From positions 1-64,000 of IMG/VR virus record IMGVR_UViG_3300017783_003463: a DNA stretch of 64,000 bases. The stretch is one strand, 5' to 3'. The translations under genes were made by a program, and so were the position numbers. The notes under the pieces were generated by a model. It worked only from the letters and a program-made list of their open reading frames with translations. It was not told the origin of the DNA and did no database searches. Below are positions 50,941-53,896 of this stretch, in pieces; the stretch's first letter is position 1; every line of letters starts with the position of its first letter. The stretch comes from an uncultured virus (IMG/VR IMGVR_UViG_3300017783_003463) (lineage: Duplodnaviria > Heunggongvirae > Uroviricota > Caudoviricetes).

Positions 50941-51260
50941 AAGATCACAACGAAGACCAATACACAATACACATTGATAGCTTTAATAACAAAGGTCAAA
51001 AAGGTGACGATGATTTTGAAACATGGTTAGAGCACGAAGCACCTCTTGTTTCTACCTCTACTATTACAGCAATTGATAACTCATATTCAGTTGATTTATC
51101 ACAACAGGCTACATGCACAAGTACAATAATGTCATCAAATGTTGGAACTATAACTTTAACAGGAACAGGACATCATGCATTAAGAAAACAAAAAAAGTTG
51201 CCAATTGACTTACTATACAAATGGTATCCTGAACAAATGAAAGAACAAAATGAAGAATAA
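50937..51260 (+). CDS. Hypothetical protein
   Basis: 107 aa; C-terminal KKLPIDLLYKWY resembles KILPVDVFYKLF of preceding ORF. Confidence 0.55.
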   Translation: MKDHNEDQYTIHIDSFNNKGQKGDDDFETWLEHEAPLVSTSTITAIDNSYSVDLSQQATCTSTIMSSNVGTITLTGTGHHALRKQKKLPIDLLYKWYPEQMKEQNEE

Positions 51261-51942
51261 AATTTTTATGTTCGATGTTGACGGCACACTTACAGACCCA
51301 AGACGTACAATAGTACCAGAGTTTAAGGAGTTTATGTTTGACTTTGTTGCAAACAATACATGTATGATTGTAACAGGAAGTGATAGACCTAAGACTGTAG
51401 AACAAATTGGGGAAGATCTCACTAACAGTTTTGCAAGAGTATATCATTGCAGTGGCAACCATGTGTTTGTTAGCGGTGAGGAAGTATACAAAAGCGATTG
51501 GACATTAACAGAAGCTCAACAAACTTTTTTACAAACTATACTACCTAGTTTTGGTTATCCTGAAATGACTGGTAATCATATCGAACAGCGTACAGGAACC
51601 GCAAACTTTAGTATAGTAGGGCGTAATGCTGATTGGGATCAACGTGCTAGATATGCTGATTGGGAAAAGTCTAATCGAGGTAGAGATACAGTAGCAATGT
51701 ATTACAATCAAGAATTCGATGATAGCATTGCTCAAGTAGCTGGACAGACCAGCATAGATATTTTTAAGAAAGGCTGTGACAAGAGTCAAGCTATAAGAGA
51801 ACATGAAGGTACAACAATTTATTTTGGTGACCATTGTAACCCAGGCGGTAATGATTTTACAGCCGCACAAGCAAGCACAAGTTTTCATCAGATTGACCAA
51901 GGATATAAACAAACTTGGGAAATCTTAAAAAACATGTACTAA
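51250..51942 (+). CDS. HAD-IIB phosphomannomutase-like enzyme
   Basis: FDVDGTLT, VTGSD, IEQRTG..NFSIVGR, GQTSIDI, FGD...GGND. Confidence 0.82.
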   Translation: MKNKIFMFDVDGTLTDPRRTIVPEFKEFMFDFVANNTCMIVTGSDRPKTVEQIGEDLTNSFARVYHCSGNHVFVSGEEVYKSDWTLTEAQQTFLQTILPSFGYPEMTGNHIEQRTGTANFSIVGRNADWDQRARYADWEKSNRGRDTVAMYYNQEFDDSIAQVAGQTSIDIFKKGCDKSQAIREHEGTTIYFGDHCNPGGNDFTAAQASTSFHQIDQGYKQTWEILKNMY

Positions 51943-51947
51943 ACCGG

Positions 51948-51977
51948 TTGACAAAGGGTAGAAAAGATATATATAAT
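51948..51977 (+). promoter_or_regulatory. Sigma70-type promoter of GIY-YIG gene
   Basis: TTGACA-N18-TATAAT. Confidence 0.7.
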
Positions 51978-51995
51978 TGTTGCTAATAAACAAAT

Positions 51996-52424
51996 ATGCA
52001 ATGGACTTATCAAGGCAAAATAGTAGAAGAAATAAGTGAGGAATACATAGGGTTTGTATATCTTATTACTAATCTCACAAACGGCAAAAAGTATATTGGC
52101 AAAAAACTAGCAAAGTTTAAAGTAACTAAAAAACCACTCAAAGGCAAGAAAAATAAAAGACGTTCAACTAAAGAAAGTGACTGGAGAACTTATTGGGGAA
52201 GCAGTGACCATTTAAACGCAGATGTTGAACAATTAGGCCCAGAAAACTTCACAAGAGAAATACTGTACTACTGCACCAGCAGAGGCGAACTAAGTTACTT
52301 AGAAGCCAAAGAACAGTTTGACCGTGAAGTTCTTAAAACTGATGAATACTATAACGGCATTATAAACGTAAGAGTTGGCAGTTCCAAGGCACTTGTAGAA
52401 TCACTAAACAGACACCAGTCGTAA
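51996..52424 (+). CDS. Minimal GIY-YIG family nuclease
   Basis: GFVYLITNLTNGKKYIGKK, YWGSS, LSYLEAKEQ (catalytic Glu), YYN; Lys-rich insert. Confidence 0.85.
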   Translation: MQWTYQGKIVEEISEEYIGFVYLITNLTNGKKYIGKKLAKFKVTKKPLKGKKNKRRSTKESDWRTYWGSSDHLNADVEQLGPENFTREILYYCTSRGELSYLEAKEQFDREVLKTDEYYNGIINVRVGSSKALVESLNRHQS

Positions 52425-52712
52425 CATACCCTCTTTGTTAAAAGCATTGAGATTGTTCGCAGTAATGCGGGCCGTCGGAACTTGCTCGAGGGAAACAAAC
52501 CAAAAGAGTGGGCTCTACTGTGCCATTGTAACCCACGGATAGCTCAAAAGTCGGCGTTATGGCTTAGAGTGTTTCTGCGTTTTAAGCAGTATGTAAAGGG
52601 GTATAGCAAAACCGCCTCTGCCTAGCAATAGGTTATACTATAACGATGCGAACTGTAGACGGGGTAATGACCGTTTCTTTTTTTGCACTTGGCTGTAACA
52701 AGCTAAGTGCGA
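52425..52712 (+). ncRNA. Putative large structured non-coding RNA, family not recognised
   Basis: No ORF >=60 aa; about 45% GC by hand count; at least 8 stems, two GNRA loops, G-U pairs favour plus strand, two possible pseudoknots. Confidence 0.6.
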
Positions 52713-52814
52713 CTGAAAACAAGGTAATAACGTATCATATAAAATATGTTTAAAAAAATTATCATACGAAATGAAATGAGTATGACGATGAGCTTTAGCT
52801 CTTCGAAAGAATGT

Positions 52815-53078
52815 TTAAAATGTTCTACGATTAGTACCTTTTGCACTTTCTAAAGCTTCTTTCTGCTTTTCATTCTTGGTTTGCATAGCATCATTAATAT
52901 CACTAATCAATCGCATAGGATATTGTTCTAAGTTAGAATAGTTAAATGCTCCTTCTGAGTAAAGCACAATATTCAATAAAGCTAATCTGATTTCTTTAGA
53001 TGCATTTTCGTAGCGTTTTACGAGGTCATTTATCTCATCGCTGGTTTTCCTTCGACGGAGGGTGTTGTGAAAAAAAAA
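52815..53078 (-). CDS. -1 frameshift extension of gp26-like gene (gp51-like / tail chaperone GT-type), 84 aa
   Basis: Open from T9 run to TAA at 52817-52815: HNTLRRRKTSDEINDLVKRYEN...YSEGAFNYSNLEQYPMRL...RRTF; no ATG until codon 52. Confidence 0.7.
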   Translation of the reverse strand, partial: FFFHNTLRRRKTSDEINDLVKRYENASKEIRLALLNIVLYSEGAFNYSNLEQYPMRLISDINDAMQTKNEKQKEALESAKGTNRRTF

Positions 53079-53896
53079 CTTGGGTTAAACTCTACTAGTG
53101 AACTAAAGCCTTTTTGGCAGTCCTCTATACCACATGTAAATTTAAATTCTTTAGGTATTCCATTTGAGTTTAATTTAAATTGTTGCCCGCTTAATATTTC
53201 GATAGTTCTGCGATTAGAGTTGCTTAACCAATCTATAATATGTTGATTTTCGCTAACTATTTGTCCGTCTGGCATTGTAACTTTAACAATAGCATCTGCT
53301 ACTAGTACTAGATTTGCCGCCGCAATTTGTTGTATGTTTTCGCTGTATCTACCTCTGAGGTCTTCGGTTATATCTTGTTTATCTGCTCTAATACCTTGTA
53401 GTATTCTTCCAGTTTCGCTGGTCACAATGTTATTTGCATTTACAGCTGAAAGTGTATTAGGTTTCATTTCAACTACAAGACCATCTACTTCTATTTCTAC
53501 TTGATCTGTTACTGATACAATTTGACCTAATACTTTTTGTAAATCGATATCAAACATTTGTGAATTTTCACAATGTGGACATGTGGCTTCTACTGGATAA
53601 GTTTTTTCATAACTGGTTGCCCTACTAGCAAGCATTACTACATCTACATCAGGTAAACTCATATCACTAGCATCTGTGATATCTGGGCAGATGCTTTCTA
53701 TTAATTCGAAGATTGATTGCCCGTTGTATAGTGCATCAGGAATGTTAAGTAACAATTCATCTCTAACATTCATTGCTCTTACACCTATTTCACCGTCTTG
53801 TGACAGTTTAGGTGGAGATTTCATCCATCTGCCTTTAGTAGGAAGTTTAACGTAGATATCTTTGGTTCTATAATACCCCTGAAGTGGATTTTCCAT
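53030..53896 (-). CDS. gp26: Baseplate hub assembly / tail chaperone protein, T4 gp26-like
   Basis: NPLQGYYR..IYVKLPT, AMNVRDEL, CPHC, C-terminal FNPSFFF. Confidence 0.7.
   Translation of the reverse strand: MENPLQGYYRTKDIYVKLPTKGRWMKSPPKLSQDGEIGVRAMNVRDELLLNIPDALYNGQSIFELIESICPDITDASDMSLPDVDVVMLASRATSYEKTYPVEATCPHCENSQMFDIDLQKVLGQIVSVTDQVEIEVDGLVVEMKPNTLSAVNANNIVTSETGRILQGIRADKQDITEDLRGRYSENIQQIAAANLVLVADAIVKVTMPDGQIVSENQHIIDWLSNSNRRTIEILSGQQFKLNSNGIPKEFKFTCGIEDCQKGFSSLVEFNPSFFFTTPSVEGKPAMR

Follow-up and report, generated by a model that had tools for sequence, protein, structure and literature searches.

The stretch of DNA analyzed here, called the window below, comprises the first 64,000 nucleotides (nt) of a 77,321-nt uncultured virus record (IMG/VR IMGVR_UViG_3300017783_003463; CheckV completeness about 21%). 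The gene set of the record, which includes the late sigma factor gp55, gp47, gp46, the baseplate hub, the portal gp20, and the prohead protease, is that of a T4-like marine myophage. On the plus strand of the window lies an open reading frame (ORF) for a small GIY-YIG nuclease (51996-52424), and at its stop codon begins a structured element that precedes a minus-strand gene block (hub gene, 53030-53896), so the genes around it converge. Comparison with homologous sequences indicates that this element (52425-52737) is a plus-strand RNA of about 310 nt that folds into about eleven helices and contains a three-way junction as well as one loop pseudoknot. Its extent follows from a conserved alignment block, a rise in G + C content (0.44-0.47 across 52400-52699; flanks, 0.29-0.40), and G-U pairs. 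An earlier note, made from the sequence of the window alone, had placed the end at 52712, while conservation goes on for about 25 nt more, to about 52737. The RNA is present as a single copy in the 77-kb record. It is a real RNA by sequence comparison and, as far as the searches described below go, a previously undescribed one, and in the uncultured marine phages of T4-like kind that carry it, its place in every testable locus is behind the gene for a small GIY-YIG nuclease. We call RNAs of the window type type A.

The nuclease gene encodes a single-domain protein of 142 amino acids (aa) of the SegE type, which matched Pfam PF19835 over residues 3-123 with 124.3 bits (cut-off, 25). The GIY and YIG tyrosines, R55/R56, E88 (Glu88), and N120 (Asn120) are invariant columns among nine nuclease sequences, and we presume that these columns have the catalytic roles assigned after I-TevI. 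A Pfam scan of the 142-aa protein found no DNA-binding domain, and comparison with solved structures gave no match at E up to 1. The gene is preceded by a sigma-70-type promoter, TTGACA-18-TATAAT (51948-51977, plus strand), which agrees with the consensus at 12 of 12 positions. Reading by eye, we found the TTGACA...TATA(T/A)A element retained in most type-A cassettes, and it stays with the cassette even at a locus with a different upstream gene (L119). In variants with a 146-aa ORF, the stop codon falls within the 5' strand of the first RNA helix (H1). The nuclease family is large, with over 600 stretches of the virus collection and 812 phage records, and many of its members lack such an RNA, among them the closest one from a cultured phage (Melnitz).

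Homologues of the RNA came from three sources: loci reached via neighboring proteins, a search with an exact 34-nt motif (51 loci, 32 distinct full-length copies), and a divergent subgroup designated A2 (19 loci, nine distinct copies). Alignment A3 holds 36 distinct type-A sequences and alignment A4 holds 23 sequences including the A2 subgroup. The earlier note had read a multi-stem RNA with two possible pseudoknots by hand, and all sequence pieces that it named are present where it placed them. In A3, the refined structure was paired in 94.7% of cells, compared with 38-43% when the partners were slid by 1-3 columns, and 25 of the 78 pairs carried changes on both sides. The covariation score was 0.190 vs 0.098 in shuffles and was reached by none of 500 shuffles. 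With A4, the structure was paired in 94.3% of cells and the score was 0.343 vs 0.166 in shuffles; H4, H7, and the pseudoknot owe most of their compensatory changes to the A2 subgroup. These results bear out one multi-helix RNA on the plus strand. The same note took a fold no better than shuffled sequences, or a lack of covariation, as grounds for giving up the idea. Covariation among homologues is present, but the folding energy of -87.6 kcal/mol is near-ordinary (z = -1.70, and 10 of 200 shuffles reach an equally good fold; minus strand, z = -1.72). Folding energy alone is weak evidence here, and the comparative evidence is decisive.

The 5' domain (52429-52492) consists of H1 (52429-33 with 52488-92) closed around a variable GNRA hairpin (52455-72). 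Three of the five CCCUC/GAGGG pairs of H1 are changed on both sides in A3, as are five of the seven pairs of the GNRA hairpin. The latter is paired in only 76% of cells because the alignment is poor there, and its sequence is swapped wholesale between variants. H4 (52508-52536) is a hairpin formed by GUGGG/CCCAC, in which UAC/GUA makes an inner helix and the rest of the loop hardly varies. GUGGG/CCCAC is invariant in A3 because the homologues were fished by that motif, and support comes from its replacement by UCAAG/CUUGA in the alignment rows of the A2 subgroup; its lower pairing in A4 (81.7%) is due to a one-column register shift in the alignment. An inner pair of H4 is A-U in 30 sequences and C-G in six in A3. 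The next hairpin, H5 (52537-52575), is long and has six pairs changed on both sides in A3. Its loop (52555-60) is the 5' strand of the pseudoknot, and the 3' strand AUAACG lies at 52640-52645. In A4, this pseudoknot was 100% paired with four of its six pairs changed on both sides, and it occurs in six covarying states (CGUUAU:AUAACG, UGUUAU:AUAACA, CUUUAU:AUAAGG, UAAUAU:AUAUUA, UACUAU:AUAGUA, and UACCAU:AUGGUG). The homologues thus uphold H1, the GNRA hairpin, H4, the long hairpin, and the loop-distal pseudoknot much as they had been drawn by hand.

The three-way junction (52588-52639) departs in part from the hand-drawn fold. It is built from a helix 52588-93/52634-39, with three pairs changed on both sides, around H7 (52597-602/52614-19) and the H8 hairpin (52620-33, GCAA loop). 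H8, proposed earlier as CCUA-GCAA-UAGG, is supported by the homologues. A second pseudoknot between GUAUAGC and GUUAUAC does not hold: the corresponding column pair of A3 (198-232) is broken in 17 of 36 sequences, and column 232 covaries instead with column 186 (A-U in 19, G-C in 17) within the nested helix 52588-93/52634-39. Of the two pseudoknots proposed, therefore, only CGUUAU:AUAACG stands. The register AGGGGU/ACCGCCU given for H7 has to be corrected as well, since two of its pairs are broken in 7 of 23 sequences; AGGGGU (52597-602) pairs with GCCUCU (52614-19), which is 100% paired in A4 with one compensatory pair, and it is the A2 subgroup that settles this register. The suggested switch in which GUUCGCA would pair alternatively with UGCGAAC does not hold either, being paired in only 68.6%. 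AGCA/UGCU and CUGC/GCAG show no variation among the homologues.

The 3' part of the RNA begins with H9 (52657-52683), a hairpin followed by seven U residues, which was the sole terminator-like site from the scan. Its stem AGACGG/CCGUUU is 77% paired, and the U-run is missing in 7 of 36 sequences in A3. H10 (52683-52720) follows as a near-invariant hairpin of 10-12 bp together with the segment GACUGAAAAC (52711-20). The stem (52685-710), which the earlier note had listed as a 10-bp stem, is 98.6-99.8% paired, and every one-sided change in it is G-U compatible on the plus strand only. The best-conserved parts of the RNA are H10, GACUGAAAAC, and GGUAAU (52723-28), all of which lie past the U-run. 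Because of this, and because 7 of 36 variants lack the U-run, the element is far more than a plain terminator, as had been suspected. RNAalifold also paired 52723-27 with UUGCU at 52482-86. This helix is 100% paired and has no change on both sides; the one variation in it, present in 8 of 36 sequences, replaces U by C opposite a G, a change that breaks the rival AGCA/UGCU pair. We consider the long-range helix 52482-86/52723-27 likely.

H10 is enclosed by a twin motif. The first copy, X1, comprises the H9 loop and 3' side (GGUAAU, 52663-68), and it repeats 55-67 nt downstream as X2 (GGUAAU, 52723-28), within a degenerate copy of H9 (52719-52737) and just after the conserved hairpin and GA(C/A)U(G/A)AA(A)C. 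The two copies in the window read AGACGGGGUAAUGACCGUUUC and ACAAGGUAAUAAC-GUAUC. The motif differs between lineages while both copies stay alike, so that X1 = X2 in every lineage. It is GGUAAU in type A and GGUGAAG, UGUGAAG, UGUCAAG, or UGCCAAG in A2, each in both copies. In a further RNA family, type B (described below), it is ACAUGAA, and the variants ACGUGAA, ACAUGAU, and ACAUAAA are each changed in both copies; X1 and X2 were identical in 43 of the 44 type-B loci, out of 80, that could be parsed. A motif within the nuclease ORF of one A2 locus (L356) was considered as a partner for the twin motif and dropped, as it was not repeated in other loci. The twin motif could possibly represent two sites for one factor or target, the borders of a processed unit of about 60 nt, or an alternative pairing.

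One-sided changes in H10 and elsewhere remain G-U paired on the plus strand. On the minus strand they would be A-C mismatches, which rules out a minus-strand RNA. A coding region was also ruled out, as the indels are not multiples of three and the changes keep pairing. No coding continuation runs past the RNA on the plus strand, where all three frames hit a stop within 14 codons, and no plus-strand ORF of 60 codons or more occurs before 53958. With respect to expression, 13 sequencing runs labeled as RNA contain part of the stretch, and contigs of four of them, from four studies, cover 51860-52839. The border between ORF and RNA is bridged by a contig in three RNA-labeled runs (assembled contigs, depth 2-24). 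Such contigs give neither ends nor strand and may hold DNA, and flanks that they leave uncovered may merely reflect strain divergence. No splice-type joints were present in them, although contigs cannot show rare forms.

We next consider how strictly the RNA accompanies the nuclease gene, the key piece of context that the earlier note did not see. The sampled loci comprise at least 51 of type A, at least 19 of A2, and at least 120 of type B. A GIY-YIG ORF ends at the start of the RNA in all 48 type-A loci with at least 330 nt of upstream sequence; 46 of these ORFs are uninterrupted, one is cut by the end of the contig, and one (L123) is interrupted at 72 aa. The last locus, on the same contig as L025, has its ORF broken in a lysine-rich A-tract while the RNA is intact and 90% identical, and the break could be decay or a homopolymer sequencing error. 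The A2 loci (L192:1923-2445 and L356-L374) have the core of the window RNA behind a 5' domain of another kind, about 260 nt long, and are placed after gp46. A nuclease ORF is upstream in 19 of 19, and its C-terminal YYNGII signature lies about 400-430 nt before the search motif. Type B is a second, larger family of RNAs of about 490 nt, which are conserved, free of ORFs, and rich in covarying hairpins, and which stand behind the same nuclease family in other phages (e.g., L156:1931-2450 and L012:4380-4790). They mostly follow gp46, which is complete at these loci, and a 65-aa ORF, and no promoter of their own is present within 90 nt. Among the matches listed, a same-strand nuclease ORF was found in all 75 type-B loci with at least 900 nt upstream. 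Hence, no RNA copy without a nuclease gene was found in the 48 type-A, 19 A2, or 75 type-B loci that could be tested, the type-B count being again among the matches listed.

Type A and type B share UAGCAAUAGG, AACGAWGCG, GACUGAAAC, and the layout of the twin motif, and the A2 and type-B RNAs also have a hairpin with GA(C/A)U(G/A)AA(A)C behind it. Since nhmmer searches in both directions gave a best E of only 0.86, which is not significant, the likeness is confined to short motifs and the 3' layout. The strongest case for regarding A, A2, and B as one class comes from this shared layout. Separately, the type-B core motif was observed in a metagenome-assembled genome labeled Candidatus Neomarinimicrobiota, on two contigs of 335 kb and 153 kb (L354 and L355), which may be mis-binned phage contigs or a hint at the host.

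The nuclease gene and the RNA are conserved together. Seven relatives were compared with the window by nucleotide identity. The five closer ones had 90-97% in the ORF, 90-100% in the RNA, 73-91% in the upstream PMM gene, and 58-71% in the hub gene, and the more distant pair, L027 and L029, had 71%, 71-72%, 58-59%, and 54-56%, respectively. The RNA is thus the fixed 3' module of a cassette that also has an early-type consensus promoter and the nuclease gene and that is much better conserved than the surrounding phage genes; gene and RNA look like one mobile unit. Type-A variants are mosaic within the RNA. At one locus with the same PMM-hub site (L012), a nuclease gene 93% identical to that of the window is followed by one more small ORF and, in place of type A, by a short RNA of type B; flank homology restarts near window position 52770. 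Because a 93%-identical nuclease gene is paired at the same site with the other RNA type, the RNA part is seen to be exchanged as a module. The extra ORF of about 75-103 aa between nuclease gene and RNA was seen at L012:4150-4385, L243, L247, and L250; it overlaps the nuclease stop codon in another frame and has the pattern W-x-GK-x-G...L...YL-W.

Searches of known RNA families, phage records, and prokaryote genomes gave no relative of the RNA. Rfam 15 (4227 families, ribozymes included) had no match in the whole window at gathering thresholds, and with E up to 10 on 51000-53500 it gave only a spurious snoR110 (E 1.9) at 52824-52900. Sixteen related loci had no Rfam match at E up to 0.1, the single hit in L156 with E up to 10 was a spurious snoRNA, and type-B RNA likewise had no match. 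ARAGORN found no tRNA or tmRNA gene in the window and ten related loci, and Rfam gave no match to alpha-, beta-, or cyano-tmRNA. There was no hit when the RNA was compared by blastn with 50,697 phage records or when 3.3 kb was compared by megablast with cultured phages, and type-B RNA gave none either. The type-A core pattern had no match in 185,579 prokaryote species genomes (one genome each). A full-text literature search yielded no description of such an RNA; its scope was article text, exclusive of the supplements of PMC10690425, with more than ten thousand candidate viral RNAs.

Several features of the surroundings deserve mention. The PMM gene upstream of the cassette is complete (Pfam positions 3-216 of 221). 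At 51831-43 it holds CCATTGTAACCCA, which is identical to RNA positions 52523-35, and 3 nt further on (51847-54) it holds GGTAATGA, identical to 52663-70; this part of the gene (51831-54) encodes a conserved HCNPGGND motif. These identities of 13 and 8 nt are probably due to chance, since they do not follow the variation of the RNA or the PMM gene from genome to genome; a guide function toward the PMM gene was rejected on the same observation, the match being confined to this genome with no covariation in others. Between the RNA and the hub gene, 52738-53029 is weakly conserved (50-75% identity) and holds only short minus-strand ORFs (47 and 53 aa). Relatives carry a minus-strand ORF of 62-80 aa at this place, and the copy in the window may be degraded.

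How might the RNA function? We tentatively favor the view that it is a nuclease-coupled module of a mobile cassette, because the linkage is strict and one-way, the RNA starts at the stop codon, the cassette is transferred as a unit, and the nuclease has no DNA-binding domain of its own. The RNA would then be made as the tail of the nuclease transcript, and, as its start lies at or overlaps the stop codon, ribosomes finishing the gene would have to open H1. It would work with the nuclease or the homing cassette, either as a bound partner that offers a structured nucleic-acid handle to the bare nuclease domain or as a gate on the expression or activity of the nuclease. H10 and GACUGAAAAC, flanked by the copies of the twin motif, would be the likely recognition or processing unit. 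A bolder form, in which the 142-aa protein and the RNA form a ribonucleoprotein whose RNA gives target recognition or activation and which drives homing of the cassette as a GIY-YIG counterpart of OMEGA/HEARO, seems doubtful to us; the twin motif around H10 would in that case mark the unit recognized or excised by the protein. A number of observations weigh against coupling to the nuclease. The cultured phage Melnitz has an 80%-identical nuclease with no such RNA behind it, only 8 of the 80 best nuclease loci carry type A, and type B is found in 40 of the 57 among these 80 that have enough downstream DNA for comparison; thus, the nuclease family does not need the RNA. The type-A-like nuclease beside a type-B RNA at L012 argues against a tight, type-specific fit of protein and RNA, and L123 keeps its RNA despite the interrupted ORF. 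Moreover, no guide-like match to flanking DNA recurred (in 80 type-B loci, no recurrent match reached 12 nt), and no consistent complementary cis partner of the twin motif turned up in the A2 subgroup. Finally, the case for transcription rests solely on assembled contigs from RNA-labeled libraries, which can hold DNA.

Part of this evidence would suit an autonomous phage non-coding RNA, acting for example on the host or on defense systems and expressed strongly from an early promoter, with the nuclease gene as a hitch-hiker or leader ORF. The 12/12 consensus promoter is unusually strong for a homing nuclease gene, the RNA outlasts an interrupted ORF at L123, RNA-free nuclease homologues exist, and in T4 the segB gene is likewise followed by tRNA-Arg, rnaD, and rnaC. 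We nevertheless regard this explanation as unlikely, considering that not one copy lacks the nuclease gene in the testable loci given above, that in intronless homing of the T4 type the target genes exist also without the nuclease, and that type-B cassettes have no promoter of their own within 90 nt. It is distinctly unlikely, in our estimation, that the RNA serves the nuclease mRNA in cis as its 3' untranslated domain, where it would block 3' exonucleases, end or insulate transcription between the convergent genes, or limit nuclease expression by a fold coupled to translation. Such a role would agree with the start at the stop codon, the ORFs that overlap H1 in some variants, the terminator-like hairpin and U-run between convergent genes, and the RNA-library contigs that span ORF and RNA. 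Eleven helices, a pseudoknot, and long invariant loops, on the other hand, exceed the needs of known stabilizers; the most conserved parts come after a U-run that 7 of 36 variants lack, and another ORF stands between gene and RNA in L012 and seven type-B loci.

The earlier note had thought of a ribozyme or an RNP scaffold. A ribozyme, which might descend from or be related to a group I intron in which the nuclease gene formerly resided, would account for the size, the pseudoknot, and the invariant joining regions, and homing nuclease genes are typical intron passengers. In addition, the order hairpin, G(C)GACUGAAAAC, and far-upstream-pairing strand resembles the order hairpin, GUGACUCGAAAC, and P3 strand in the T4 introns of td, nrdB, and nrdD, a likeness to the intron R element that we treat as a lead only. 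We consider a ribozyme quite improbable all the same. The group I intron model RF00028 gave no match at E up to 10 in 51000-53500 of the window or 1250-2800 of L156, though it found the T4 introns of nrdD (105.3 bits), td (40.3 bits), and nrdB (35.7 bits). An intron in the PMM, gp46, or nuclease gene was ruled out, given that PMM and gp46 are complete, exons are absent, and no plus-strand ORF comes after. Type A has nothing matching P8, the P7 3' strand, or P9, because conservation ends right after the possible P3-like helix 52482-86/52723-27, and an S-like motif of type B proved by covariation to be a local hairpin. The least probable explanation, and a very improbable one, is action on its own locus at the DNA level: the structure, in single-stranded form or through an R-loop-forming transcript, would serve the nuclease, recombination, or the priming of replication as a site. 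The conservation of H10 extends beyond its shape to its sequence, it resembles the hairpins bound by Ssn nucleases, which act on single-stranded DNA and not on RNA (PMC11893778), and the twin motif could be a pair of DNA sites or the footprint of a duplication. This explanation has to reckon with a nuclease of the 142-aa PF19835 SegE type and not of the 94-aa cd10448 Ssn type, with features typical of RNA that extend over 300 nt (GNRA loops, a three-way junction, and a pseudoknot that covaries), and with a motif that recurs once only and not as repeats flanking the gene on both sides.

Large, intricately folded RNAs without an assigned function are rare, and earlier cases beside the nuclease genes of mobile elements proved to be self-splicing introns or guide RNAs, as when HEARO became omega-RNA. 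Here, three or more related types of RNA appear to make up one family, which occurs in abundant marine phages of the T4-like kind, uncultured so far, and is tied strictly to a GIY-YIG nuclease of minimal form. If this link is functional, as in the nuclease-coupled module that we favor, it would offer a new route for targeting or controlling homing nucleases and may yield a very small programmable or RNA-gated nuclease, and the rule that both twin-motif copies change alike would be a concrete experimental handle. If the RNA acts alone, it would be a new, highly expressed early phage RNA.

Among known systems that come near to this one is the intrinsic terminator. H9 and U7 fit its pattern, but they account for only about 27 of some 310 conserved bases, are missing in 7 of 36 variants, and are followed by the best-conserved part. 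Group I introns with GIY-YIG genes, such as T4 td with I-TevI, similarly unite a mobile GIY-YIG gene and a large pseudoknotted RNA and have a short R-like motif in common with it. They differ in that the ORF lies in a loop of the RNA, while here it lies upstream of an RNA that has neither exons nor a covariance-model match. In T4 itself, the segB region (T4 70908-71918) has a GIY-YIG gene followed without a gap by stable RNAs on the same strand, tRNA-Arg, rnaD, and rnaC, over 333 nt, and the T4 record annotates rnaC and rnaD only as 'small, stable RNA' (L353:1909-2919). There is no sequence likeness by eye, and rnaC and rnaD end in a tRNA-like part that has no counterpart here. In relatives of T4, those RNA genes reportedly exist without segB as well, whereas the window-type RNA was never found alone in testable loci.

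The Ssn proteins are single-domain GIY-YIG nucleases associated with hairpins of 20-50 nt (NTS/SRM) that occur as DNA repeats flanking genes; they are reported to cut the hairpins as single-stranded DNA and not to bind RNA (PMC11893778). A nuclease reduced to its catalytic domain and encoded beside a sequence-specific hairpin is common to both systems. The Ssn proteins are cd10448 members of about 94 aa, in contrast to the 142-aa PF19835 protein here, and their hairpins contrast with a single multi-helix element of 310 nt. In the window, H10 is a single hairpin without repeats on both sides, and each of its halves has one copy in 77 kb except for one reverse half-site match. A further comparison is with HEARO/omega-RNA with IscB and the omega-RNA of TnpB (OMEGA). 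The nuclease there is of the RuvC/HNH kind, and the neighboring gene here encodes a PF19835 GIY-YIG protein, which rules out an IscB-, IsrB-, or TnpB-type partner; the RNA has no Rfam HEARO match, and close nuclease homologues without the RNA exist. What the systems share (for OMEGA, see also PMC13565253) is a large structured RNA encoded beside a small nuclease gene in a mobile element, with gene and RNA always together; in the case described here, the RNA overlaps the gene at its 3' end.

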